A stretch of DNA of 64,000 bases from contig CAZSWA010000001.1 of assembly GCA_964610465.1 (NCBI GenBank), forward strand, positions 79,023-143,022, written 5' to 3'. The position numbers and the translations under genes are program-made. The stretch is from an uncultured Gammaproteobacteria bacterium. GTDB lineage: Bacteria > Patescibacteriota > Microgenomatia > Levybacterales > UBA12049. Each line of letters begins with the position of its first letter. Positions within the stretch are counted from its first letter, which is position 1. This document shows positions 14,445 through 61,242 of the stretch, piece by piece. Under the pieces are notes generated by a model. It was not told the origin of the DNA. It did not search any database and was given only the letters and a program-made list of their open reading frames with translations.

Positions 14445-15074
14445 TCAATCACCAAAACTTGCTTTATCAAGTATCATTTCTTTGGCAAAGAGATAGCCGC
14501 ATACCAATGCAGCTGGAAGAAAGGTATCAAACAGATTGCCGTCAAAATGAGTATCTTTGGTATAACGCTCAATCTTTTCTTTAAGAGGTGAAAGTTGTTT
14601 TAAGAATAACTCTAGGACTTCATCAATAGGTGAGAATACCTTGACGCCATCCATGAGTTGCTTCACAATTTTATTTTTGGCAAGCTTAATAGCGTATTTG
14701 TCAGTCTGTACTGCATAAGGCACATTGCCTTTAAAAAGACCACGTTCCTGAATATACATTTGTACGCCACACATCATGGAAAAATAAAACAATGTATACA
14801 GTCGTGAACGATAGACGCGTTTCATGCTTGGCATGGGAGAAAAATGGATAGTAGCAAATATCGCAGCAATTGAACGGCATTCATTACTAATTTCTTCCGG
14901 CATGAAGAACTTGGGGACTGGACTGTCATTGGTGAACCGGTCCATGGAGTAAATAATATCTTCCCAAATTATCTGTGCGATAGGATGTATAGTTTCCCCA
15001 GCATTCTGGGAGGGCAGTTTCTTCATAAATGCTGATGTGTTTAGTAATGTATCATAAAAACTCAAGAATGTCAC
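14445..15074 (-). CDS. hypothetical protein, unknown family (paralog A of 18331..18888)
   Basis: 209-aa ORF. It aligns with the 185-aa ORF at 18331..18888 (KFF[ML]P[DE]E..., L[FY]Y...G...Y[IL][QK]ER.F[KR].N..PY, K..K..K.[IL].DG, C-terminal GY.FAK). No known family recognised. Confidence 0.5.
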   Translation of the reverse strand: MTFLSFYDTLLNTSAFMKKLPSQNAGETIHPIAQIIWEDIIYSMDRFTNDSPVPKFFMPEEISNECRSIAAIFATIHFSPMPSMKRVYRSRLYTLFYFSMMCGVQMYIQERGLFKGNVPYAVQTDKYAIKLAKNKIVKQLMDGVKVFSPIDEVLELFLKQLSPLKEKIERYTKDTHFDGNLFDTFLPAALVCGYLFAKEMILDKASFGD

Positions 15075-18330: not shown

Positions 18331-18888
18331 TTATTCAAGAAGATTTTTGGCAAAATTGTAGCCCCAGTAGAGTGAAAGCTTTGAATAATCATGAAATTTG
18401 ATTTTATTTATTCTATGTCCTTTCATACGGAGCTCTTCAAGCTTGATATAGTTTTTGATATTTTCAACAATAATATCAATTATTCTATCTGCAAGAGGAG
18501 TTGAGACTATCTCACCATCTGAAATAATTTTTAATGTTTTTTTCTGCACTTTTCTTATAAATCTTCCATCTATAGGAAATACATAGGGTGCAGAATTAGT
18601 GCGAAACGAACGTTCCTTAAGATAAATATTACAGCCGTAGGTGACAATCGTATAGTAAAAGAGAAGAGACGGAGTACCTTTTACTTCTTCAGGTTCGAGT
18701 ACTGGGTTAAAAATTGATGCTGAGAAGCCACCAGCTAGACCATAACATGCATGAGCTACTTCATCAGGAAGAAAAAATTTTGCAACTGCACTATCATGCG
18801 TATATTTATTGATAAGTTCAAATATCTCACTCGCAATAAGAAGGGATTGCTCATCAAGCTTAATGGTATTTTGTTGCCCTATTTTCAC
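18331..18888 (-). CDS. hypothetical protein, unknown family (paralog B of 14445..15074)
   Basis: 185-aa ORF homologous to 14445..15074. It lies 41 nt downstream of, and co-directional with, the PP2C gene. Confidence 0.5.
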   Translation of the reverse strand: MKIGQQNTIKLDEQSLLIASEIFELINKYTHDSAVAKFFLPDEVAHACYGLAGGFSASIFNPVLEPEEVKGTPSLLFYYTIVTYGCNIYLKERSFRTNSAPYVFPIDGRFIRKVQKKTLKIISDGEIVSTPLADRIIDIIVENIKNYIKLEELRMKGHRINKIKFHDYSKLSLYWGYNFAKNLLE

Positions 18889-18929
18889 TAGTTGCTAGGA
18901 TAATTGGCATCGTACATTCTGTCAAGAAA

Positions 18930-20774
18930 TTATTTTTGGGGAGTTGGCTTTTTATCAAAATTTACTACGATGACAGTAAGATCATCAGTAGTCCCTCTTC
19001 TTCTTGCTTCATTTTTTATCAATCTACTTGCTTCACTTGGATCAGCTATGTCTCTAATTAAATCTTTGACTTGTTCATTCTTTAATACATCCCATATACC
19101 ATCAGACGCAATAATAAGACGTGAATTTCCATCTGGAAGTTGTATCTCATGAGCAATATATGGTTGTGCAATTATCTCTTTCCCATCTGTATCACCTAAC
19201 GATCGTGAGACTGCTAAACCTTGTACTCTTGGGACTCCATACGTATATACTGTTCCACCTGCTTTTTCAATTCTTGCTTGTTCTTCTGGATCATCAGGTT
19301 TATGATCATGAGAAAGTACATGAACTGTATCTCTCTTGACTAAGATAGCACGTGAGTCTCCAGCATTGGCAATATGAAGAATATCACCTTGTCGATAGGC
19401 AACTACTGCAGTTGTCCCAAATGATTTATCAGGATTATTTTTTATCCATAGATCTTTTATCTCCTTATCTGTTCGCTGAAATGCTTTATCTAAGGCTTTG
19501 TTCACATCTCCATTTGAATCTGCAAGCGCTTTTACAAAGTGTTCATGAAGTTTTTCAGATGCCAGTTGCGCAGCTTCGTACCCATATCCTTCTTCTGGTC
19601 CATGCCCATCATAGACTGCATAAAAAGATTCTTGAGGCTTATTTCCAAAGGCATCTTCTCTTACCAATCTATCTTCATTCTTTGCATGTCTTGTTCCTAC
19701 CTCTGAAATACTACCTGAGTTTATGGTTACTGGTACTTGTTCACTTTTATTTTCTTTTTTTCTTGTTACAACAAATGGTTTTGTTTCAAGAGGTTTTCCT
19801 GAAAAAACATCTCCTGATCTTGCTAGACTGTTTCCATTCGTACTACCATTTTTACCATTTGTTCCATCTGGCGTATGAGATGTACCATTAGCATGTTGAC
19901 CATTTTTCCCGTTAAAAATATCACCAGTTTGTCCAGAGTTTGCTCGGTTTCCATTATGATGTCCATTACCTGAATCCAAACCATTTTCCCAAAGAAATGT
20001 AACAATTTCTCTTGACTTTGAATCCTTTGCGAGCGGACCTAGTTGATAGACAATTCCGTCTCTTCCATATGCTTTTTTAAGAAATTCATCTTTTGCGACT
20101 TTGTCACTTTTTTTACTTACCAGCTCAATAAGTGCAGTTGTTACTTCCGCTGAGTTTTCTCCAAATACATTGGCAAGCCATTTAATACCTTCAAGATTAT
20201 CGAGTAGCTCGCTTCTTGTAACATGATTATTTTTTGGAGTATATACTTCAAGTACATCCTGTACAAATCGTTTTATATCTGATTCATGGTTTGGTCCGGT
20301 AAAATATCTATCATAAAACTCCTGTGCTTGTGTATCTGAAAAAGTTCCATCTGTAGGGATACCGAGTTTGTGATAGAGGATAGCTCTTTTTTTACCTTCG
20401 TCTTCATTAGCGAAATAAGTTTTGTTATTGTTGATAGTGTTAATAAAACTTTTTTTCCACCCAGTCATTTTTTGCTCATAAGGACTCGTATCACCGATTT
20501 CTCTATAATGCTTAATTCTCTCTTTGGTCGATGCATTTCTTACCACTCCATAGGTACCGTTAAGATTGCCAAGATAGTCACTCTTTAAAAGATTTTCAGT
20601 GAGTGCTCCATCCACTGGTTTATCGGGATTAAATGCCTCCTCATTATGACTTCCGATAAGAAGGCGTGCTTGAAGACCTATAATTTCATTCAGTCTTCTT
20701 TCAACTTCCGGAGGAGCTCCTCTATTTACTCCTGTATCTACTGTTGTTGTATTTGGCCTTAATCTTTCATTCAT
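18930..20774 (-). CDS. PP2C-family Ser/Thr protein phosphatase with ~350-aa uncharacterised N-terminal domain
   Basis: The C-terminal ~250 aa carries PP2C motifs (FYAVYDGHGP, TTAVVAYRQGDILHIANAGDSRAIL, IIASDGIWDV, DDLTVIVVNF). A Gly/Asn-rich linker (NGHHNGNRANSGQTGDIFNGKNGQHANGTSHTPDGTNGKNGSTNGN) precedes it. The N-terminal domain has no recognised motif. Confidence 0.8.
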   Translation of the reverse strand: MNERLRPNTTTVDTGVNRGAPPEVERRLNEIIGLQARLLIGSHNEEAFNPDKPVDGALTENLLKSDYLGNLNGTYGVVRNASTKERIKHYREIGDTSPYEQKMTGWKKSFINTINNNKTYFANEDEGKKRAILYHKLGIPTDGTFSDTQAQEFYDRYFTGPNHESDIKRFVQDVLEVYTPKNNHVTRSELLDNLEGIKWLANVFGENSAEVTTALIELVSKKSDKVAKDEFLKKAYGRDGIVYQLGPLAKDSKSREIVTFLWENGLDSGNGHHNGNRANSGQTGDIFNGKNGQHANGTSHTPDGTNGKNGSTNGNSLARSGDVFSGKPLETKPFVVTRKKENKSEQVPVTINSGSISEVGTRHAKNEDRLVREDAFGNKPQESFYAVYDGHGPEEGYGYEAAQLASEKLHEHFVKALADSNGDVNKALDKAFQRTDKEIKDLWIKNNPDKSFGTTAVVAYRQGDILHIANAGDSRAILVKRDTVHVLSHDHKPDDPEEQARIEKAGGTVYTYGVPRVQGLAVSRSLGDTDGKEIIAQPYIAHEIQLPDGNSRLIIASDGIWDVLKNEQVKDLIRDIADPSEASRLIKNEARRRGTTDDLTVIVVNFDKKPTPQK

Positions 20775-21024
20775 ACTTCTATTTTACTCCTATTGTCAAA
20801 TATAGATATAAAACTCTGTACAAATATCTTATAGCAAGCATAAGTGAATTGAATCTTAGGAAGGTAAATAACTAGTAAGAAATGCCATACAGACACAAGT
20901 TATAGGCTTAATATTTGCTTTTTTTTACACTCTCCAATATAATACTATAACTTAAAACAAGCTCAAGTTTATAATCTATTTGAAGAAGATAAGACTCTTT
21001 TCACGGCTTAGTAGATAAAAATAT

Positions 21025-24006
21025 ATGGGACATTTAGAACGACAGGAAATACTACGACAAAGATTTTCAGATTTTGCTACGTTTCATGAAAGAATTACTA
21101 CAGATATTCTCTCAGTTGATCCAACAGCAATAGCGAATTGGGCGAATGAACAGACAGTTAAAAAAGAAACAAACTTCACGTCATTACTTACTTCTCCTTT
21201 TAAAGAAGCTGCAAGTCAGGGTTTTAGGAAATATATCCAGAATGAACGTGAAATGCAGCAGTTTTGGGAGAAACACAATCTTTCTACACCTACAGACAAA
21301 GTAAAACAGGAGCTTCTCAAAATCGTTCAAAAAGATACAACAGAAACATCTCATAAAGAAGACGTTTGGCTTAGACGTATGCATGGAGGAATAGCGCTTG
21401 TTGTTTCTCCTGAGAGATTTGCTGAAATAGTACAGCCTAAACTGCATACTCCAGAAGGTAAATTACTGACTGGAAAAGACGCAGCAGAGGAACTTGAAGC
21501 TTTTGCACAAGTTGGATTTACGTTTGAGCAGGAAGAATTACACATTTCATCCGATTTCCCATTTCCAAAAAGTGCAAAGATAGCAGTAATCCAAAATACT
21601 CCAGGTTTTGAAAATGCAATTGCACATGAAGAAAGAGAATTAATAGGGTTTTATATGGATGAAGTAACAAAAAGTGATAGAAATGATAATAGACATGTAG
21701 AGACGATAAGACGACTAAGAAGAAGATTCGGAGCAACGGAAAAAGTTGGAGAGGCAATGTATGATCTTGCAACGCGGATTGAAAATGGAGAAAGAAATCC
21801 TGCAGTTCAACTTTTCAAGACAGATGAAGATAATCAACAGGTATTTTCTCTTATTGCTTATCAGGCAAAGGAAATAATTCAAGACAGCAAGCATACTGCA
21901 AGCCAAATTCGAGGAGCTGTACTTAATCCCAAAAAACTTTTGGAGTATTGGAATTTAGATAATCAGTCTAATTCTGAAGAAAGTAATGTGAGGGAAAATA
22001 CAAATACGATAACTCTTACATCAGAGCGAAAAGGCAGATTTGTCTATAACAAAGCTACATTACGACCAGGAGACACAATCATTCATGATAGGATAACTTA
22101 TCAAGTTACAGAAATTCTTTCTGCGACAGGTGGACAAGGAGTAGTATATAAGGCTCAAGAGATAGGCAAACCAGAGACAAAAATAGTGGTAAAAGAAGTA
22201 ATATTTAATGCACCTGAAGCACTTATTGCCAATGAGGCAACAGCTTCAATGGTAGTTGAAGGTATTGCCAAGAATAATCCAGATATGAGTCAGTTACTTA
22301 AAAATCTCCAATTATTTGCTGGTAATGAAGAATTTGGAATAGAATATATTAATTTTATTAAAACAAAACTAAGCGATGATACATTTTGGAATCAATTTGG
22401 CGGGAAAAATTTGTACAAAAAAGAAAATTTGAGCTTTAGAACACATGATTCGCAAACTGGACAACCGTTTATTGCTCCTCCATATCGAGAGATTATTGAT
22501 GCAGTTAAACAAGCAGCGGCCGAATATACAAAGACCTATATCGCTGAAGAGAAAAGGAAGGAATTAAATGAAGTAGTACAGTTTTTCTTATCTGAAGCAA
22601 ATGCAATGGCTAGGTTATCAGGAGTTAAAGGAGTTGCACATATGATTGGTATGGTAGCAAGTGATATGTCTTTTGCACCTGATAATCTTAAATATCATTG
22701 CATGTATATAATAGAAGAATTTATAGAAGGTTCTACTTTACAGAATCTATGGCAAATAGGAAGTGGTAAACGTGGAGATTTTATAAAAGCATCTGAACTA
22801 GTAAGCGAAATTCTTGCAACTCTTTCTGAAGTTCATGCAAATGAGGTGGTTCATAAAGATATTAAACCTGAAAATGTAATTATTGAAGCAAAATCAGGAG
22901 AGCCGAAGCTTATTGATTTTGGTATTGCCAAAACTCATCTTAAGGATTTAATTTCTGCTCAAAAGCAAGGGACAAGAACAGGAACAAGTTTGAGGGGAAC
23001 TCTTGGGTATGTCTCCCCAGAACATTATACAGGGACAGATACCCGTTCTGATATTTATTCTATGGGAATGATGATGTATGCAATGCTTACAGGTGATGAC
23101 CCGGGAGATTATATTGCACGAACCTTACAATTTAAACAGATAGCAAGTTACGTTGATATAAGGATTGCATTACTTGAGACTATAGATAAGAGATTTCCTA
23201 AACATTTACGGGAGATAGTAGTAAAAGCAGTTCAAGAAGACCCTGATAAGAGATTTCAATCAGCAGATGAGATGAAAACAGCAATTGATGAAATAATAGA
23301 CAAAATAAAAAAACCTCTAAAGCAGATACAACAACCTGTACAGACAATTCAATCTGTAACTTCTTCACAATCAATCATACCGCTTCCGGTCTTTAATAAA
23401 GATAATAAGAGAACTACTTGGTTTAGCGGATTAGAATTTAGTGCGATTAATGCGATTCGTCTTAACAGACCAGATATAGTACAGAAGGCTTTGGATAGTT
23501 TAAAAACATATATTTCACCATCTGATACAATTATCACCAAAAAAAGCGTTGAGACTATAGCCCATATCACTCATTCGTTGCATAACGAAGGAGAACAAAT
23601 GGGCCAAAGTCTTAAAAGTTATTCATTAGATTTGCTCGAAACAGGAATTTTTGCTGAGAAAGATACTTTTATCATTCCTCCTCAATATCATGCTCATCTA
23701 CAGAAATTTACCAAAGAATGGATTATAAATAGTGGATTTACAGATGTTCCTCTATCAAAGACTCAGGAATGGGATATGGCAAGTGATAAAAGAACCTATG
23801 AAGATCTTCCTGTTGAAATACGAATATACTTTGAAACAACAGAAATTATTATTGAGCATATGAAGACAACAAAAGACATGACAAGAAAAACAGAACTGCA
23901 AGACAGGCTTAAAAAATTCCAATGGCAAGCTCCCTACTGGAGTGACCCAGGATTTCAATATCTGACTTTTCGGAAAGCAGAAGAGCTTAGAAACAGGCTA
24001 AAATAA
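21025..24006 (+). CDS. Hanks-type Ser/Thr protein kinase (non-RD) with large N- and C-terminal uncharacterised domains
   Basis: 993-aa ORF. It carries a Gly loop SATGGQGVVYKA, beta3 Lys in KIVVKEV, catalytic loop VVHKDIKPENVII (HKD not HRD), DFGIAK, and GTLGYVSPEH. A ~130-aa insertion separates the N-lobe from the catalytic loop. The N-terminal ~330 aa and C-terminal ~280 aa are unassigned. Confidence 0.8.
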   Translation: MGHLERQEILRQRFSDFATFHERITTDILSVDPTAIANWANEQTVKKETNFTSLLTSPFKEAASQGFRKYIQNEREMQQFWEKHNLSTPTDKVKQELLKIVQKDTTETSHKEDVWLRRMHGGIALVVSPERFAEIVQPKLHTPEGKLLTGKDAAEELEAFAQVGFTFEQEELHISSDFPFPKSAKIAVIQNTPGFENAIAHEERELIGFYMDEVTKSDRNDNRHVETIRRLRRRFGATEKVGEAMYDLATRIENGERNPAVQLFKTDEDNQQVFSLIAYQAKEIIQDSKHTASQIRGAVLNPKKLLEYWNLDNQSNSEESNVRENTNTITLTSERKGRFVYNKATLRPGDTIIHDRITYQVTEILSATGGQGVVYKAQEIGKPETKIVVKEVIFNAPEALIANEATASMVVEGIAKNNPDMSQLLKNLQLFAGNEEFGIEYINFIKTKLSDDTFWNQFGGKNLYKKENLSFRTHDSQTGQPFIAPPYREIIDAVKQAAAEYTKTYIAEEKRKELNEVVQFFLSEANAMARLSGVKGVAHMIGMVASDMSFAPDNLKYHCMYIIEEFIEGSTLQNLWQIGSGKRGDFIKASELVSEILATLSEVHANEVVHKDIKPENVIIEAKSGEPKLIDFGIAKTHLKDLISAQKQGTRTGTSLRGTLGYVSPEHYTGTDTRSDIYSMGMMMYAMLTGDDPGDYIARTLQFKQIASYVDIRIALLETIDKRFPKHLREIVVKAVQEDPDKRFQSADEMKTAIDEIIDKIKKPLKQIQQPVQTIQSVTSSQSIIPLPVFNKDNKRTTWFSGLEFSAINAIRLNRPDIVQKALDSLKTYISPSDTIITKKSVETIAHITHSLHNEGEQMGQSLKSYSLDLLETGIFAEKDTFIIPPQYHAHLQKFTKEWIINSGFTDVPLSKTQEWDMASDKRTYEDLPVEIRIYFETTEIIIEHMKTTKDMTRKTELQDRLKKFQWQAPYWSDPGFQYLTFRKAEELRNRLK

Positions 24007-25878: not shown

Positions 25879-26379
25879 ATGAAAAGGATACCTCTTTATA
25901 TTATTGTGAGTACACTTGCTACCTTCTTTTTTGTTGTCTTGCCAAAGAGTATATTGGCTGATGTTAACGTAGATGTTTCAAACAATGCAGGCGGCAGTAA
26001 CAATAATGTAAGCATTGATAACGAGGTAAATAATACTGTAGATACAGGTAATACCTCACAAACGAATACAACTGTAACCATTAACGGAAAAACCTATCAT
26101 TCAGATCAGCCAGGAGAACTTAATTATCAGTCAGATGATGGCCATTCAACTGTTCATATTAATAATCAAGTTGGAGGAACAAGTGTCAATACTCAGTCAA
26201 ACCAAAATATACAAAATAATGTGCATGTCAATACGAACACTTCAAATAATGCCCCATCTTCCCTGTCCACGACACCTGAACCTACGCATAAAGAATTTAA
26301 AACAAATAAAAGTTCATTTGATTTTTCGTTGTTTATGGATTTCTTCAAGAATTTTCTCAAAAACTTCCACATCTTTTAA
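25879..26379 (+). CDS. small secreted/anchored Asn/Thr-rich low-complexity protein
   Basis: N-terminal hydrophobic helix, then N/T/S/Q-rich repeats (NNAGGSNNNVSIDNEVNNTVDTGNTSQTNTTVTING...). Confidence 0.45.
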   Translation: MKRIPLYIIVSTLATFFFVVLPKSILADVNVDVSNNAGGSNNNVSIDNEVNNTVDTGNTSQTNTTVTINGKTYHSDQPGELNYQSDDGHSTVHINNQVGGTSVNTQSNQNIQNNVHVNTNTSNNAPSSLSTTPEPTHKEFKTNKSSFDFSLFMDFFKNFLKNFHIF

Positions 26380-31748: not shown

Positions 31749-32417
31749 TTAGTATAGGAAGTTGTTCAAAAGCTTCATTATTAATATTACCAAAGCATCA
31801 ATACCTAAAGGAATTACTAGTAGCTTATTACATTTATTTAATATATAAGGTGCTTTAAAAGAAACAAATGCGGTGATAATAGAAGAAGGAATACGAAAAC
31901 CAAGAAGAAAAAAGATACTAATTACTCCACATATAATCAGTACTACTTCAACTGTTCCTTCTAAGTCCTTTTTGCTTGAAAACATATTATTTCCAATCTC
32001 AAAAATTATATATACAACAAGAAATAACAAAAATTTATTTTCAAAAATATTTTGGGGCAGATAAAAAAGCATACTAAGAAGTATAGCGGTTCCCGCAAAG
32101 AACGGTGCAATCCCAATAAAGATATTCCTCATAAAATCCGTTTTTGCAATCATGACACTCCCAAGTTTTATATTTCTGCCTTCTCCATAGGGTATAAGTT
32201 CTATTTTGCCCGTAGATACAAAAAGAAGTTTTGCCGTTAAAAAATGTGATAGTTCGTGAACAAGAGTTCCTGGGAAAAAAAGAAGTGCCATAAAATATAT
32301 CATCATTTTCTGGCTTCTTGTAACTCTTAGAAAAAATAATGATAGCTCAATAGTAAGTATTCGTGATAAAAGATAAAGGAGAAAAAGCAAAGCAAGAAAA
32401 AAGAAAATAGAGAGCAT
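31749..32417 (-). CDS. polytopic membrane protein with HExxH motif (putative intramembrane zinc metallopeptidase)
   Basis: HELSHFLTA lies within a predicted transmembrane helix. About 6 hydrophobic segments. Confidence 0.5.
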   Translation of the reverse strand: MLSIFFFLALLFLLYLLSRILTIELSLFFLRVTRSQKMMIYFMALLFFPGTLVHELSHFLTAKLLFVSTGKIELIPYGEGRNIKLGSVMIAKTDFMRNIFIGIAPFFAGTAILLSMLFYLPQNIFENKFLLFLVVYIIFEIGNNMFSSKKDLEGTVEVVLIICGVISIFFLLGFRIPSSIITAFVSFKAPYILNKCNKLLVIPLGIDALVILIMKLLNNFLY

Positions 32418-53007: not shown

Positions 53008-54192
53008 ATGGCGCGGAAGAAAATAAGTGAATATAAAACAAAAAAACTCTTGCATGACTATTTACATACCCATTATGAAGGAATGCGTTTTGAAAGTAAT
53101 AAGGATGAGTTGTCACTTATAGATACATTAGATGCAAAGAAAAAATATGTCCTCAAAGTGGACGAAGGCGTTAAAAAAAGATTTAGAAAAGGATTGGTTT
53201 TACTTAACAAAACACCTTTGGAAATAAAAGAGGAATTAAAAAGAATTCAGGAAACAGGATACAAAAATTTCATTATTGAACCATTTTTATCACACGCAGA
53301 AGAGAGTGAAAAATATCTTTCAATTGAACGAGTACGCGAAGGATATCTGGTATTTTATTTTGAAAAAGGCGGAATAGATATTGAGAATTATAGAAAAGAT
53401 ATTAAAAAAAGTATTTTATCTTCATATTCTGACGGAGAAGAAATTACAAAATATTTAGGTATTGATAAAAATCTTTTTGAAAGTATTTTGAAATTTTTTG
53501 ATGAATATTATTTCTCGTTTCTTGAAATAAATCCTCTGGTTATCCAAAACAATAGAATCATCTTTCTTGATATTGCAAGTGAAGTAGATAGTGCAGGAGA
53601 ATTTTTTGTGCATAACGGATGGGATAGCGAAGATTTCCAAGAAGGAAAAGAGATACAGAAAACTGATGAAGAAAAAAATATTGATGAATTATCAAGAAAA
53701 AGTCAGGCCTCATTTAAATTAGAAGTACTAAATCCCAACGGAAGTATTTTCATGCTTTTATCAGGAGGAGGAGCAAGTATCGTTCTTGCAGATGAAACAT
53801 ATAATTTAGGATATGGGAAGGCTGTTGCCAACTATGGAGAATATAGCGGTAATCCGAATGAAGAAGAAGCATATTTGTATACCAAAAATTTATTAAGTCT
53901 TCTCCTTAAGTCAAATGTACAAAAAAAAGTTTTGATTATTGGTGGAGGAGTTGCAAATTTTACTAATATTTTAATAACCTTTAAGGGTGTCATTGCAGCA
54001 TTAAAAGAAGTCGCAGAAAAACTTAAGGAACAGCAAGTTAAAGTATTTGTGAGACGAGGAGGACCAAATCAAGAAGAAGGACTAAAAGTAATGGAGCAAT
54101 TTCTAAATGAAAACGGAATTTTAGGTGCAGTTCGCGATCCAAAAACTTCTTTACCAGAAATAATAACACTTGCAATAAAAGAGTTACAATAA
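53008..54192 (+). CDS. aclB: ATP-citrate lyase small (ATP-grasp) subunit
   Basis: Colinear strong similarity to the N-terminal part of canonical ATP-citrate lyase, recalled from memory. Matches include ISEYKTKKLLHDYL, FIIEPFLSHAEESEKYL...YLVFYFEKGGIDI, YFSFLEINPLVI, KLEVLNPNGSIFMLLSGGGASIV...ANYGEYSGNPNEEE, and LIIGGGVANFTNILITFKGV...VFVRRGGPNQEEGLKVM. Confidence 0.85.
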   Translation: MARKKISEYKTKKLLHDYLHTHYEGMRFESNKDELSLIDTLDAKKKYVLKVDEGVKKRFRKGLVLLNKTPLEIKEELKRIQETGYKNFIIEPFLSHAEESEKYLSIERVREGYLVFYFEKGGIDIENYRKDIKKSILSSYSDGEEITKYLGIDKNLFESILKFFDEYYFSFLEINPLVIQNNRIIFLDIASEVDSAGEFFVHNGWDSEDFQEGKEIQKTDEEKNIDELSRKSQASFKLEVLNPNGSIFMLLSGGGASIVLADETYNLGYGKAVANYGEYSGNPNEEEAYLYTKNLLSLLLKSNVQKKVLIIGGGVANFTNILITFKGVIAALKEVAEKLKEQQVKVFVRRGGPNQEEGLKVMEQFLNENGILGAVRDPKTSLPEIITLAIKELQ

Positions 54193-54196
54193 AAAT

Positions 54197-55990
54197 ATGT
54201 TAGATATCGCAAGACTTAGAAAAAACAAACTACATATTATTTCCATTGGAAGTTATCCATCAATCATCCAATCGATATTGGATTTTGATTATCTTGTAGG
54301 AAAACAAACACCAAGTATAAAAGCAATTATTGCAACAGGACGCAATAGTGAACGATATTTTTGGGGAAAGAAAGAAATTCTTTTGCCGGTTTTTACTAGT
54401 GCGCAAAGTATTCCTCAGAAAGATTCCATTAATTTTTTTCTTAATCTTTCATCGGGTCGTAGAGTTTTTGCTTCAACTTGTGAATTATTAGATATATTGC
54501 CTGCTATGTTAGGAGGAGTTGTTTTTGCTGAAAACGTTCCTGAACAACATGCAATAGCACTTTACCAAAAAATAAAAGACAGTGACAGATTTATTGTCGG
54601 TCCGGCAAGTATAGGAGTTCTTATCCCGAATATGATAAAAGCAGGTGCAATTGGTGGAGTAGATGCGAGACAATTTGTGGAATCCTCCCTTTTTGATTCG
54701 GGAAGTGTTGCAGTTCTTTCATCATCAGGAGGAATGACCAATGAATTGATTCGTACAGTAGCACAAAGCGGAAAAAGACTTTCTTTTGCATTGTCTTTTG
54801 GCGGTGAAAGATTTCCTATAACTACTCCAAAAGACGCATTTCTTGCAGCAGAAAAAGATGACAATACAAAAACTATCGTATACTTTGGCGAATTGGGAGG
54901 GACTGATGAATTTGATATCGCAGATTTACTACAATCAAAAAAAGTAACAAAACCGGTTGTGTGTTATATCGCAGGAGTTATTGCAGACATATTTCCTACT
55001 CCACCTCAATTTGGTCATGCCAAAGCATTGGCACAAAAAGAAAATGAAACTGCACAAGAGAAAAGAGATGTTCTAAAAAAAGCGGGTGCAAAAGTTGCTG
55101 ATTCATACACTCAATTTCTTGAGTTTATCAAGGACATAGAAGATACCTCTATGAAAAGTGAAAGAGAATATACTACAATAATTAAGTCTATGGAAAACAG
55201 ACAACATGCGCTTATCACAACAAGTATCTCAGGGGATAAAGATGGGAATCCCCAGATTTTGGGTGAGAATTTATTAGATGCTGCCAAAAATAATTCGTTT
55301 GCGGCAATTGTTGGTTCGTTATTCTTAGGACAAAAAATAAAATCAAAAGAGCTTGAAGAGTTTGTTGATTTTGTTCTCAGACTTCTTGTTGATCACGGAC
55401 CTTATGTGTCAGGTGCTGTCAATACCATCATTTCAGCTCGCGCCGGACGGGATTTAGTATCAGCCCTTAGTACTGGACTTTTAACTATTGGTCCGCGTTT
55501 TGGTGGCGCAATAAACCAAGCAGCAGAGAATTGGATACAAGGAGTTACGACTTCTCAAGATCAATCTCTATTTGTTGAAGATTTTGCAACACACAAAAAA
55601 TATATTTCAGGAATAGGGCACAAGAAATACAGAATAGATTTGCCAGACCCAAGAGTTAAAGAAATCTTAAGATTTGCAGAAAAACTTGAGGAAAAAAGAT
55701 TTACGAATTTTGCTCTTGCAATTGAAAAAATCACAACTGCAAAAAAAGGAAATTTAATCTTAAATGTTGATGGTGCAATTGCAGCAGTGCTTTTGGATAT
55801 TCTTTCAGAAAGAGAACACCTACAGGATGATGAATTACAAAAACTTACCCAGATAGAATTCTTCAATGGTTTGTTTGTCCTTTCCCGTTCTGTTGGCTTT
55901 ATGGCACATTATTTTGATCAGAAACGATTGGATGAAGGATTGTTTAGATTGGATGAGAATTTAGTAGCAGAAGTTGGAGAAAAAGAATAA
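54197..55990 (+). CDS. aclA: ATP-citrate lyase large subunit (CoA-binding, phospho-His, citrate-synthase-like domain)
   Basis: A CoA-binding/ligase domain is present. The catalytic His lies in PPQFGHAKALAQKENETAQEK (cf. ACL QFGHAGA). The citryl-CoA lyase domain is LLVDHGPYVSGAVNTIISARAGRDLVSALSTGLLTIGPRFGGAI...GIGHKKYRIDLPDPRV, which tracks the ACL C-terminal region closely. Confidence 0.85.
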   Translation: MLDIARLRKNKLHIISIGSYPSIIQSILDFDYLVGKQTPSIKAIIATGRNSERYFWGKKEILLPVFTSAQSIPQKDSINFFLNLSSGRRVFASTCELLDILPAMLGGVVFAENVPEQHAIALYQKIKDSDRFIVGPASIGVLIPNMIKAGAIGGVDARQFVESSLFDSGSVAVLSSSGGMTNELIRTVAQSGKRLSFALSFGGERFPITTPKDAFLAAEKDDNTKTIVYFGELGGTDEFDIADLLQSKKVTKPVVCYIAGVIADIFPTPPQFGHAKALAQKENETAQEKRDVLKKAGAKVADSYTQFLEFIKDIEDTSMKSEREYTTIIKSMENRQHALITTSISGDKDGNPQILGENLLDAAKNNSFAAIVGSLFLGQKIKSKELEEFVDFVLRLLVDHGPYVSGAVNTIISARAGRDLVSALSTGLLTIGPRFGGAINQAAENWIQGVTTSQDQSLFVEDFATHKKYISGIGHKKYRIDLPDPRVKEILRFAEKLEEKRFTNFALAIEKITTAKKGNLILNVDGAIAAVLLDILSEREHLQDDELQKLTQIEFFNGLFVLSRSVGFMAHYFDQKRLDEGLFRLDENLVAEVGEKE

Positions 55991-57630: not shown

Positions 57631-57656
57631 AACCCCTTATATAAGGGGTTTTTTTG
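57631..57656 (+). terminator. intrinsic terminator after murB
   Basis: AACCCCTTA-tat-TAAGGGGTT hairpin followed by T7. Confidence 0.7.
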
Positions 57657-57668
57657 TGGAGAAAAAAT

Positions 57669-58934
57669 ATGCAAAATGAAATTTTAAGACAGCTCACAAA
57701 CAATGAATACCTTGAGAGAACTTCTTGGGAACAAGAAGATGTTCGGCGAGGAAAAAATCTTTCTTATTTTTCAGAAAGTGTTATTCAGGATGATTGGGTG
57801 AAACAAGCACTTGTGCAATCAGTACATCTTAATAGTGAACTTACTGAAGCAAAATACCTTGCTCCGTTTCATGAGCCTGCATCTGTTTTTCGTGGAGCAT
57901 TTTCAATTGATGTAATTGATCCTATTTCAATCATTCCCAATAAAGATTTTTATACCGATCCTCCTGAAAGAATCTTATCTGTTTTTGCATCAAGTTCTGT
58001 TCGTCGTGGGAAAAAAGAGTTATTTGCTGATTATATTAGCGAGATTAAACAAAAACTTTACCATTATACAAGAAAAGCAAATCCTGTTGAGTTTGTTCTG
58101 CCAACGCTTCCATTTAAAGATCAAAATCCTTTCACAACAAGACATAGTATTGATGCAGTTGATTTAGGAGAATATCTCTTTTTTGCTCAACTTCGGGATA
58201 TTACTACTGCTATAACAGAGACATATCCACCAGGAGTAAGAATTACACTTCTTACAGATGGTTTAGTGTATAAAGACTTATTTGCAAATGGGCAACGAAA
58301 TGCGATAGAAGAATATAGAAGAAACTGCCAACAGATTAGGGATGAGATGGGTTTAAAAGGAGTTATCGATATTGTTGATATGGAATGCATTGTGGGAAAA
58401 GATGCGGACTTCTATGATATACAACAAAAAATGCAAGAGAGGATACAAATACTAAGCGAATCAGATACAACAGTTGCATTACATATACGATCTCTTGCTC
58501 ATGGAATGCGTTGGAATATACCAATACACGGACATTCATATGATGAGTATAGACAAATGTTTGAGCAAAATAACCTTTCTCAAGAAATAACTAAGCAGAC
58601 CTACAATACTGCAGTAAACTATGCATCATTTCTCCTTGCAATGAGACGTACGCGAGCTATTGAACGAGCATTTCCTCATGCTGTGAGATTGACAGTACAT
58701 CCCAAAAAAGCACCACAAATACCGATTCATTTAGTAAATAATCGTTCCATAATATTTCCTTATAATGGCGTACCAGTTGTGTCAGAGAAAAGAATGGAAG
58801 AAACTAAAAATATCAGACAATCAACGAAAATAATGAGATTTGCCGATGTGTTAGATTTTCCATCAGCAAAAGCCGTCTATGTCGCTGATAAAGCTGAACC
58901 ATTCTATTATCAAATTGATGAAAGGAGTGTATAA
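57669..58934 (+). CDS. PvcA/Dit1 (isonitrile synthase) family homolog with ~130-aa N-terminal extension
   Basis: EFVLPTLPFKDQNP (cf. PvcA FVLPAFPCKSP), GVRITLLTDGLVYKDLF (cf. ITIVSDGHVFSD) and AVRLTVHPKK (cf. LRLSIHPHS). The start is assigned to the ATG at 57669, downstream of the terminator. The family assignment is from remembered PvcA motifs. Confidence 0.5.
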   Translation: MQNEILRQLTNNEYLERTSWEQEDVRRGKNLSYFSESVIQDDWVKQALVQSVHLNSELTEAKYLAPFHEPASVFRGAFSIDVIDPISIIPNKDFYTDPPERILSVFASSSVRRGKKELFADYISEIKQKLYHYTRKANPVEFVLPTLPFKDQNPFTTRHSIDAVDLGEYLFFAQLRDITTAITETYPPGVRITLLTDGLVYKDLFANGQRNAIEEYRRNCQQIRDEMGLKGVIDIVDMECIVGKDADFYDIQQKMQERIQILSESDTTVALHIRSLAHGMRWNIPIHGHSYDEYRQMFEQNNLSQEITKQTYNTAVNYASFLLAMRRTRAIERAFPHAVRLTVHPKKAPQIPIHLVNNRSIIFPYNGVPVVSEKRMEETKNIRQSTKIMRFADVLDFPSAKAVYVADKAEPFYYQIDERSV

Positions 58935-58941
58935 TACTGGT

Positions 58942-61242
58942 ATGTTTTGGGCAGACACACTGTTAGAAGGAAGAAAAAATAAAGAAGTCATTAATGATTC
59001 GTGGACTCCGTCTGGAATCGTCCATATGGGATCTTTGAAAGGTCCAATCATCCACGACACACTTTTCCGTATTTTAAAAGAAAGAAAACAGGAGGTTACT
59101 TTTATGTATGGGTTTGATGATATGGATCCAATTGATGGAATTCCTCCAGATCTGAAAGGTTTGTTTGAAAAATACCTTGGTATACCTATATTCCTTGCTC
59201 CATCTCCTGATGGGAAAGGTTCGTTTGGTGATTTCTACGGAAATAAAATGAAACACATTCTTGATACGTTAGATATTCATCCTGATAGATTGTATAAAAC
59301 AAGTGAAGTGTACAAAAGTGGAGAATTTGATAATGCGATTAGGTATGTATTGAATAATGCTGATGCAGTGAGAAAGGTATATGAAGAAGTGTATAAAAAG
59401 CCAATTGCAAACGATTGGTATCCATTGCAAGTTATTTGTCCAAATTGTGGAAAACTTGGAACGACAAATGTTACTGGATGGGATAGGAAAGAGGTTGCAT
59501 TTATTTGCGAAAAAAATCTTGTGCAATGGGCAGAAGGATGCGATTTTACAGGCAAAATTTCTCCTTTTAAAGGAAATGCCAAAATGCCTTGGAAAGTAGA
59601 ATGGGCTGCAAAATGGTGGACATTTGGAGTAACAATTGAAGGGGCTGGTAAAGATCATGCATCAGCAGGTGGTTCTTATGATGTTGCAATGAAACTCTGC
59701 AAAGAAGTCTTTAAAAAAGAGACACCGTTAAAGATTGCATACGAATTTTTCCTTTCAGGCGGCAAAAAAATGTCTTCTTCAAAAGGTACCGGTTTGACAG
59801 GTGAGGAACTTTTGGAAGCATTGCCACCGGAAGTAGTAAGATTTTTAATGATTAAAAATCCACCAAATCAAGCAGTTGAATTTACTCCCAGAGATACTGA
59901 TACAATACAGAATTTGTTTGATGAGTATTTTAAAGCAGCGGATACATATTATCAAAAATCAGATGAGAACTTGGCAAGAGCATTTGAACTGTCTCAAATC
60001 GGCAGTCCAAAGAGGATCCCCGCACTCCGAATGAGAGTAATTTCGCAATTAGTACAGATGCCTAACAAAGAAGAAGAAATAAGAAGAGAAGGACTGGAAG
60101 AATGGTCCCGTTTTGCCAGAGTATGGGTTGAAAAATATGCTCCTGAATCAGAAAAATTTTTGGTGCAAGAAAAAGTTCCGCAAGCTGCAAAATCACTTTC
60201 TGAGACACAAAAACACTATTTACAAACGATTGCAAATTGTATAGACAAAAATTGGAATGCGGAAGATTTTCAAAAAAAACTTTATGAATCGGCAAAAGAT
60301 TTAGGAGTTTTACCAAAAGAAGCATTTTCTGCAATTTATCTGTCTCTTATTGGGAAGGATCATGGTCCGAAAGCTGCTTGGCTCCTTTTATCCCTTGAGA
60401 AAGAGTTTATTAAAAAAAGATTCACTGAAGTTACTACAGAAAAACAAAGAGCAAGCCTTCGTCATGATGAGAGTCTGCTAAGCTCAACCGATGACCTCAC
60501 GCCGAGGGGAAGTAAGAGTCAAAAAAATGATAAACAAATTCAACTTCTCAATAAACCTGAGATATTTTCTATTGGCGTGGAGATTAAACAAAAATTTTCT
60601 TCAATTTCAGTCGGTATTGCAGTAATTAAAGGAGTAAATATACAGAAAACAAACTCGGAATTAGAAAAAGAAAAACAAGAATTATTGACTATTTTAAAGG
60701 ATTTAACAACAGAACAATTAGGTCAGTATCCTGAGATTGCGAGTTATCGAAAATTATATAAAGCAATGGGTATCGATTGGCATTCACGTCGTCCAAGTCC
60801 TGAAGCATTACTTCGGAGAATAGCCCTTAAAAAAGGATTATATACAGTTAATACATGTGTTGACGCATATAACCTTATCGTTATGAAACATCGTATCTCG
60901 GTCGGTGCTTTTGATTTAGATAGAATTGAGTTTCCCACAGGTTTACGTTTCGCAAAAAACGGTGAAGAGATACTATTACTTGGTGAACAACAACCAACAC
61001 AATATAAAGAAGGAGAAATCGCCTATTTCGATAAACAAGGTGGATACAATATAGATTTTAACTATCGTGATGCGCAACGGACAGCTGTGACAGAACAAAC
61101 AAAAAATATCTATATTAATGTTGATGGTATATATGAGATTACTACTGAGAGAGTAGAAGAAGTTTTACATGAAGCTTGCAATATAATCCTAAAATACTGC
61201 GGTGGGAAAATAGAAACTTTTGGAGTAGAAACTGGTAAATGA
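58942..61242 (+). CDS. lysS: class I lysyl-tRNA synthetase fused to a C-terminal B3/B4 (PheT-type) domain
   Basis: Class I HIGH-like SGIVHMGSLKG and KMSKS-like GGKKMSSSKGTG motifs sit in a LysRS-I-like catalytic core of ~520 aa. The extra C-terminal ~260 aa contains LYTVNTCVDAYNLIVMKHRISVGAFDLDRI, which matches the B3/B4 domain consensus. Possible starts are 58918 or 58942. Confidence 0.75.
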   Translation: MFWADTLLEGRKNKEVINDSWTPSGIVHMGSLKGPIIHDTLFRILKERKQEVTFMYGFDDMDPIDGIPPDLKGLFEKYLGIPIFLAPSPDGKGSFGDFYGNKMKHILDTLDIHPDRLYKTSEVYKSGEFDNAIRYVLNNADAVRKVYEEVYKKPIANDWYPLQVICPNCGKLGTTNVTGWDRKEVAFICEKNLVQWAEGCDFTGKISPFKGNAKMPWKVEWAAKWWTFGVTIEGAGKDHASAGGSYDVAMKLCKEVFKKETPLKIAYEFFLSGGKKMSSSKGTGLTGEELLEALPPEVVRFLMIKNPPNQAVEFTPRDTDTIQNLFDEYFKAADTYYQKSDENLARAFELSQIGSPKRIPALRMRVISQLVQMPNKEEEIRREGLEEWSRFARVWVEKYAPESEKFLVQEKVPQAAKSLSETQKHYLQTIANCIDKNWNAEDFQKKLYESAKDLGVLPKEAFSAIYLSLIGKDHGPKAAWLLLSLEKEFIKKRFTEVTTEKQRASLRHDESLLSSTDDLTPRGSKSQKNDKQIQLLNKPEIFSIGVEIKQKFSSISVGIAVIKGVNIQKTNSELEKEKQELLTILKDLTTEQLGQYPEIASYRKLYKAMGIDWHSRRPSPEALLRRIALKKGLYTVNTCVDAYNLIVMKHRISVGAFDLDRIEFPTGLRFAKNGEEILLLGEQQPTQYKEGEIAYFDKQGGYNIDFNYRDAQRTAVTEQTKNIYINVDGIYEITTERVEEVLHEACNIILKYCGGKIETFGVETGK

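Follow-up and report, generated by a model that had tools for sequence, protein, structure and literature searches.

The 64-kb window analyzed here (the whole stretch of DNA, 64,000 nucleotides of contig CAZSWA010000001.1) contains a gene for a PP2C phosphatase and a gene for a Hanks-type Ser/Thr kinase that are transcribed away from each other, with a smaller gene for a 185-aa protein behind the phosphatase gene (Table 1). The phosphatase begins with a helical region, here called the N-module, that recurs in many other proteins. We read the two enzymes, with about even confidence, as a lineage-specific cytoplasmic Ser/Thr kinase/PP2C signalling pair in which the N-module targets the phosphatase. 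In other genomes N-module genes are accompanied by genes for a small protein and a giant protein, and this cassette is a more unusual item than the kinase/phosphatase pair. A preliminary description of the DNA had placed the two enzyme genes back to back across an AT-rich region of about 250 bp, and that layout stands: the spacer is 250 bp long with a GC content of 26.8%, compared to 35.1% for the whole window. A single weak promoter-like site (20966-20939, minus strand) lies in it, together with one weak, imperfect 14-nt inverted repeat (20897-20910 and 20940-20953), and no Rfam family matched it. Promoter-like sites in the region are not above chance, with 18 found and 21.2 ± 4.3 expected in shuffled sequence.

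Table 1. Genes, domains, and spacer of the kinase/phosphatase locus, in window coordinates
Feature	Position	Strand	Basis or remark
185-aa gene, metK-neighbour family	18331-18888	minus	Open reading frame (ORF) call, independent gene caller on source contig agrees; synteny in relatives; outside the kinase/phosphatase unit
PP2C phosphatase gene, 614 aa	18930-20774	minus	ORF call, independent gene caller agrees
PP2C (PPM) catalytic domain, aa 346-614	18930-19739, stop codon included	minus	PF00481
Asn/Gly-rich low-complexity linker, aa 269-345 (77 aa)	19740-19970	minus	Read from sequence
Phosphatase N-terminal module, aa 1-268, all-helical	19971-20774	minus	phmmer, family hidden Markov model (HMM), AlphaFold2
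Divergent intergenic spacer, 250 bp	20775-21024		Presumed promoters of kinase and phosphatase genes
Hanks-type kinase gene, 993 aa	21025-24006	plus	ORF call, independent gene caller agrees
Kinase N-terminal region, aa 1-352	21025-22080	plus	Soluble, no Cys; no family match
Hanks-type Ser/Thr kinase domain, aa 353-770	22081-23334	plus	Pkinase PF00069
Kinase insert of about 110 aa, aa 395-505	22207-22539	plus	Deletion constructs, kinase profiles, MAFFT
Kinase C-terminal region, aa 771-993	23335-24006, stop codon included	plus	No family match

The phosphatase matches PF00481 over aa 356-598 with 189 bits (E = 1e-55), against a cut-off of 20.3, and keeps the complete set of metal- and phosphate-binding residues of a PPM enzyme: R362, D368, D389-G390, D473, D558-G559, and D597/D598. 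The minus-strand PP2C of the preliminary description is thus borne out. Its nearest solved structures are eukaryotic PPMs, i.e., plant ABI2/ABI1 at 100-106 bits, PPM1K at 97, and PPM1A at 92, and the best-scoring solved bacterial PP2C chains reach about 47 bits. N-terminal to the catalytic domain, where an uncharacterized domain of more than 300 aa had been proposed, the protein divides into the N-module of 268 aa and the linker; the corresponding region of the kinase has 352 aa and matched no family.

The kinase matches PF00069 with 103.6 bits, compared to a cut-off of 31.7. As judged by sequence and profile alignments, all of the catalytic residues are present: A367-x-G369-x-x-G372-x-V374, K390, E524, N617, D631-F-G, S664-P-E, and R743. 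The catalytic loop reads H610-K611-D612, HKD in place of HRD, so that the earlier assignment as a non-RD Hanks kinase of 993 aa is correct. The solved structures nearest to it are the PknB kinase domains of S. aureus and M. tuberculosis (72-79 bits). Judged by their motifs, both the kinase and the phosphatase look enzymatically intact.

The kinase carries an insert of about 110 aa, which most likely separates strand β3 (K390) from helix αC (E524) in the N-lobe. Without aa 395-505, the protein scored 113.6 instead of 103.6 bits with Pkinase and matched profile positions 9-255 instead of 32-255, and against a profile of 30 homologous kinase domains the shortened sequence scored 180.5 bits, compared to 169.0 for the intact one. 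Placing the insert between β2 and β3 instead gave 175.2 bits with the same profile, and K390 is preferred to K496 as the β3 Lys by only 5 bits. When the kinase was aligned with the 30 homologues by MAFFT, the residues specific to the window kinase fell within aa 379-510. The insert of about 130 aa that had been proposed between the N-lobe and the catalytic loop therefore exists, but it is shorter and most likely sits inside the N-lobe, and the C-terminal region, put earlier at about 280 aa, measures about 225-233 aa.

The N-terminal region of the kinase had no match in Pfam, NCBIfam, or PHROGs at E <= 0.01-1 or among PDB sequences; the C-terminal region matched nothing in any of these four, and no family matched the insert alone. 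The PADLOC models gave no match to the flanking regions or the insert, and those models that are kinase-based cover the kinase core only. Close relatives of the kinase were found neither in JGI metagenomes and IMG/VR by pattern scans nor among GenBank phages by tblastn. In a word-index search with the full-length protein, all non-self matches covered no more than 30% of the query at 26-38% identity, which is consistent with similarity in the kinase core only. The orphan status of the three extra regions is provisional, as they were covered by word-index and close-relative scans only, the exhaustive HMMER search having been applied to the phosphatase, and comparison with that search showed that the word index misses relatives of 30-40% identity. 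A concatenated 985-aa query of all non-catalytic parts returned the kinase alone in the word-index search; it missed the phosphatase, whose first 270 residues lay inside the query, along with relatives of up to 40% identity, and so this negative is unreliable.

Neither enzyme contains a membrane segment or a signal peptide, hydropathy over 19 residues peaking at 1.06 in the kinase and at 0.67 in the phosphatase; both are therefore expected in the cytoplasm, unlike the PASTA receptor kinases. Outside the catalytic cores of the two proteins, no PASTA, TPR, FHA, or other Pfam, NCBIfam, PHROGs, or PADLOC domain was detected, in keeping with the earlier view that the extra domains are not common modules.

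The N-terminal part of the phosphatase is not the one-off that it had seemed. An exhaustive phmmer search with aa 1-270, counted as cluster representatives at 50% clustering, uncovered 204 family members at E <= 1e-3 and 90 at E <= 1e-10, and in 145 of 149 matches the similarity begins within the first 60 residues. The member proteins are 106-1170 aa long, and those with a name come from Roizmanbacteria. A family HMM scored 201 bits on aa 18-268 of the phosphatase, with conserved positions at E23, R37, S82-x-x-E85-R86, W106, Y154, F170, W199, and F204-G205. An AlphaFold2 model from a 34-sequence alignment has 14 helices, with a predicted local distance difference test score (pLDDT) of 86 and a predicted template modelling score of 0.84. 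Foldseek matched this fold to nothing in PDB or BFVD, the module is not covered by any Pfam, NCBIfam, or PHROGs model, and no links to phage or viral sequences were found. A scan of GTDB genomes with a 10-sequence N-module alignment returned 4 loci only, the window's own genome not being among them. On sequence grounds, the N-module family is Microgenomates-wide and lineage-specific. The kinase takes no part in it: its N-terminal region is not a member and shares no homology with that of the phosphatase, and BLAST, HMM, jackhmmer, and hhalign comparisons likewise revealed no homology between the kinase regions and the N-module, the 185-aa family, or the cassette proteins described below (hhalign probabilities were below 1% for the C-terminal region against the N-module and the 185-aa family).

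What follows the N-module varies. Other members continue with Pro/Glu/Thr-rich linkers, and only one of them, P0278 (locus L014), also carries a PP2C domain. Among 73 members scanned, a few have DEAD/Helicase_C, HopA1, ABC1, peptidase M54/M13, or GT2 domains, and most have no Pfam domain at all; one further module protein, in locus L012, gives a weak GNAT match. A polymorphic-toxin reading of the module was favoured first. The C-terminal parts do differ, and a few members carry a HopA1, peptidase, or helicase domain, yet 99 of 139 fall in one linked cluster of shared domains without annotation, and once this sharing was seen the toxin reading was downgraded.

A survey of 13 independent loci besides the window showed that N-module genes often lie in adjacent pairs and that they are accompanied, in 10 of the 13, by a gene for a small helical protein of 123-166 aa with a PPPPAPV-type tail (L009, L011, L012/L020, L014, L015/L016, L017, L018/L022, L021, L023, and L024). 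Nine of these 10 also encode a giant protein of 1200-2240 aa, L015/L016 having the small protein only, and homology among the giant proteins extends over more than 1000 aa. A full set is encoded in the complete Roizmanbacteria genome CP066689.1 (L024, 10001-21864): N-module genes of 697 and 791 aa, a small protein of 165 aa, and a giant protein of 2236 aa. The giant proteins carry optional domains, namely PP2C_2/SpoIIE in L009, L012, and L017, Metallophos in L009, and GT9 in L017; otherwise the cassette proteins have no Pfam, NCBIfam, or PHROGs match. A PP2C domain is thus present in 5 of the 14 module loci, window included: three loci have it on the giant protein, and in the other two, the window and L014 (P0278), it is fused to the module.

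Two further kinds of gene were seen near N-module genes. Homologues of a 222-aa protein encoded in the window at 31749-32417 lie directly upstream of N-module genes in L011, L017, and L018, and others adjoin Cohesin-domain genes in L002-L004 and L008. Tandem runs of related proteins of about 100-130 aa are encoded just upstream of N-module genes at L010 1577-4527, L011 52-798, L017 2188-4602, and L018 4771-7228, and three of these four arrays include an extra protein of about 320-445 aa.

The 185-aa gene lies 41 nt beyond the phosphatase stop codon in the same orientation and has a paralogue in the window (14445-15074, minus strand; 26% identical, E = 3e-18), as described before. The family comprises at least 97 proteins in Patescibacteria/Levybacteria-type genomes, with orthologues 50-65% identical; the AlphaFold2 model of the window protein is all-helical (pLDDT 84) and had no significant match to PDB folds. 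Its orthologue is convergent with metK in L004, L005, L007, L008, and a JGI contig, and in L002 and L003 it adjoins a gene for a 340-aa membrane protein, which neighbours metK in the window. No PP2C or kinase gene occurs within 10 kb of the orthologue in any of the six relatives (L002-L005, L007, and L008) or in the JGI contig. The preliminary description had grouped the 185-aa gene with the two enzymes and had named absence of the trio from related genomes as telling against such a module; the trio recurs in 0 of 6 relatives, and the 185-aa orthologues keep their metK or membrane-protein neighbour.

The same comparison bears on the kinase and phosphatase genes. The order in relatives is an ABC-transporter gene or an orthologue of window gene 25879-26379, then the 185-aa orthologue, then metK, and both enzyme genes are absent from this site. 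In L007, the closest relative (MetK 73% identical), the counterpart of 25879-26379 is upstream of the 185-aa orthologue, and in L008 the ABC-transporter orthologue (66% identical) is 0.7 kb upstream of it. We therefore regard the 5.1 kb with the PP2C and kinase genes as a variable spot and the 185-aa gene as a bystander, and the joint absence of the two enzyme genes fits a two-gene unit. Of the self-contained reversible-phosphorylation module first proposed, a divergent pair of a PP2C and a kinase with intact motifs is supported, their functional coupling would be plausible, and the 185-aa gene drops out.

The product of gene 25879-26379 has 166 aa, is rich in Asn and Thr, and is likely secreted, given the hydrophobic segment at its N-terminus. 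In L004 and L007 an orthologue of this gene immediately precedes the 185-aa orthologue; this adjacency marks an ancestral junction that is interrupted in the window by the kinase/PP2C pair. Recent horizontal transfer of the pair was considered and rejected: the composition of its genes is not anomalous (GC 0.35-0.37 and third-position GC 0.19-0.22, compared to 0.35 and 0.22-0.28 for neighbouring genes), and the site has neither a tRNA gene nor an integrase gene.

The genes of the proposed signalling pair would have been acquired, or kept, as a two-gene unit in a variable spot that is flanked by the metK/185-aa block and the ABC-transporter gene. The kinase would autophosphorylate, phosphorylate cytoplasmic targets on Ser/Thr, or both, and the PP2C would reverse this. 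The N- and C-terminal regions of the kinase and the insert in its N-lobe would be input or autoregulatory elements, and the insert could control the active conformation, because it is next to helix αC. The N-module would not be a signal sensor; it would dock the phosphatase onto a partner common to module-bearing proteins, most plausibly the giant-/small-protein assembly encoded beside module genes in other Microgenomates. Docking on that assembly is suggested by the PP2C domain sitting on either the giant protein or the module protein, in the manner of a Rosetta-stone link.

Several points weigh against this reading. None of the 13 other N-module loci has a kinase gene, so that a Hanks kinase nearby is not a general requirement of the N-module system. 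The 64-kb window has no gene of the small or giant family and thus lacks the cassette itself, and the closest N-module relative, P0166 (40% identity), is likewise encoded outside a cassette. Neither a substrate nor an FHA partner or output domain can be seen, the lack of an FHA-domain partner nearby agreeing with the preliminary description, and the docking role of the N-module is something that we purely infer. Kinase-phosphatase coupling, as far as sequence can tell, would follow from adjacency and from joint absence in relatives only. The cognate pairs pstP-pknB, stp1-stk1, and prpC-prkC are usually transcribed in the same direction from a single operon, unlike the divergent genes of the window. 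A more far-reaching version, in which the N-module is the docking handle of an undescribed Microgenomates machinery with Ser/Thr dephosphorylation built in and the window kinase is the opposing enzyme, strikes us as rather unlikely. The core of such a machinery may be the giant protein together with the small helical protein and its proline-rich tail; the window is the only case found, among the loci examined, in which a Hanks kinase is encoded beside a module-PP2C.

Three other explanations were weighed. The kinase and the PP2C could be neighbours without functional coupling, the module-PP2C serving the module/giant system and the kinase being an independent orphan regulator. The kinase-free N-module loci, the divergent rather than operonic arrangement, and the absence of any domain common to the kinase and the cassette proteins all point that way; joint absence from the syntenic site does not, and functional partnership of adjacent kinase and PP2C genes is recurrent among bacteria (PMC6213207), so that we hold uncoupled neighbours to be unlikely, while giving them some weight. 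The kinase could alternatively be a cytoplasmic sensor that phosphorylates many targets upon infection and is restrained by the phosphatase, the pair acting as an anti-phage or abortive-infection unit. Its kinase domain does match PADLOC models for PD-T4-6 with up to 147 bits and those for mad6 and MkoA with about 100 bits, as well as the NCBIfam models for MADS6 and PglW, and the site of the pair, flanked by conserved genes, is variable. These matches reflect the generic kinase core only, however: the score is 103 bits against a cut-off of 460 for NCBIfam MAD6 and 47 against a cut-off of 990 for PglW, and no methyltransferase, PglX/Y/Z, helicase, or nuclease partner is encoded nearby. Neither scores nor partner genes place the kinase in the PD-T4-6, MADS MAD6, BREX PglW, or Mokosh MkoA systems, and with native composition at a site that lacks the integrase and tRNA genes, we consider a defence role highly improbable.

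The position of the N-module at the extreme N-terminus, followed by a flexible linker and then by differing C-terminal parts, raises the further possibility that both proteins are contact-dependent or host-directed effectors of an episymbiotic bacterium, with the N-module as a shared export or targeting domain and the PP2C as payload. The layout resembles the N-terminal domains of polymorphic toxins such as LXG in that a helical N-module of about 250 aa precedes a linker and differing C-termini, often in gene pairs. Single N-module members with HopA1, DEAD helicase, ABC1, peptidase M54/M13, GT2, or GNAT domains would suit such a role, as would a PP2C nearer to eukaryotic PPMs than to solved bacterial PP2Cs, and bacteria of the candidate phyla radiation (CPR) are in general regarded as symbionts (PMC8080830). 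Yet the N-module has no sequence or fold match, and the C-termini that follow it are not hypervariable, most of them being shared domains of the linked cluster and not toxins. Moreover, no recurrent immunity-like or secretion-system gene was found beside N-module genes, signal peptides are absent, and no phage or viral link came to light; effectors are accordingly a quite unlikely explanation.

The signalling pair that we favour resembles the PknB/PstP, Stk1/Stp1, and PrkC/PrpC pairs of Actinobacteria and Firmicutes in having a PknB-like core encoded beside a PP2C with all metal-binding aspartates. It differs from PknB/PstP-type pairs in its divergent genes, HKD for HRD, the β3-αC insert of about 110 aa, and the 268-aa N-module of the phosphatase. 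In contrast to the PknB/Stk1 PASTA kinases, the window kinase lacks a transmembrane helix and PASTA repeats, as judged by hydropathy and Pfam, and it scores 141 bits with the PknB_PASTA_kin model (NCBIfam NF033483), far below the cut-off of 450. The phosphatase scores 83.5 bits with Stp1_PP2C_phos (NF033484), split in two stretches, against a cut-off of 230; whereas Stp1, IreP, and PstP have about 240 aa and are catalytic only or end in a C-terminal membrane anchor, it has 614 aa and an N-terminal module. The eukaryotic PPMs (ABI1/ABI2/HAB1 and PPM1A/PPM1K) show the top similarity in the catalytic domain, with full motifs, but the window PP2C differs in its bacterial context, native composition, and N-terminal extension. 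Like the RsbU/RsbP/SpoIIE-type PP2Cs, the window PP2C is C-terminal to a regulatory or targeting region, and the giant proteins of L009, L012, and L017 have a PP2C_2/SpoIIE-type domain; unlike them, it is of the PF00481 type, and the neighbours scanned included no STAS or anti-sigma-kinase genes. According to a recent survey, which has 119 annotated partner domains, the catalytic domain stands alone in about 90% of bacterial PP2Cs (PMC12088040). Since the N-module has no Pfam model, it would not be among those 119.

The rest of the 64-kb window is ordinary chromosome: besides metK, mutS, mutL, and recA it has genes for a class I lysyl-tRNA synthetase, an AddA-like helicase-nuclease, and RNase Y. 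Where relatives of the window proteins are named, they belong to Candidatus Levyibacteriota, Roizmanbacteria, or bins labelled "Patescibacteria group", which suggests that the DNA is from a Microgenomates-type CPR bacterium related to Levybacteria and Roizmanbacteria. Each window protein looked up is the only member of its 90%-identity cluster, which indicates that no close relative of the source organism has been sequenced. At 53008-55990, a 597-aa protein with CoA-ligase and citrate-synthase parts is preceded by a 394-aa ORF; the two look like an ATP-citrate-lyase-type pair, unexpected in a small CPR genome. A homologue of DIT1/PvcA (isocyanide/dityrosine synthesis) at 57654-58934 overlaps by 56 bp the start of 58879-61242, which encodes the lysyl-tRNA synthetase with a C-terminal B3_4 domain.

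Pairs of a Hanks kinase and a PP2C are a well-known regulatory device, and the pair in itself is unsurprising. The novelty is in how the enzymes are packaged: the non-RD kinase is soluble and has a large insert adjacent to αC and two flanking regions without detectable relatives, and the phosphatase is fused to a module that marks a conserved, unannotated Microgenomates cassette. CPR bacteria have tiny genomes in which a large share of the genes have no known function. The cassette, itself without any annotation, takes up 10-15 kb of a genome of about 1 Mb in CP066689.1 and has repeatedly recruited PP2C domains. The recurrent cassette is therefore a concrete handle on this uncharacterized part of CPR biology, and the window fusion protein, in which an assayable enzyme is joined to the N-module, is a simple experimental entry point to it.

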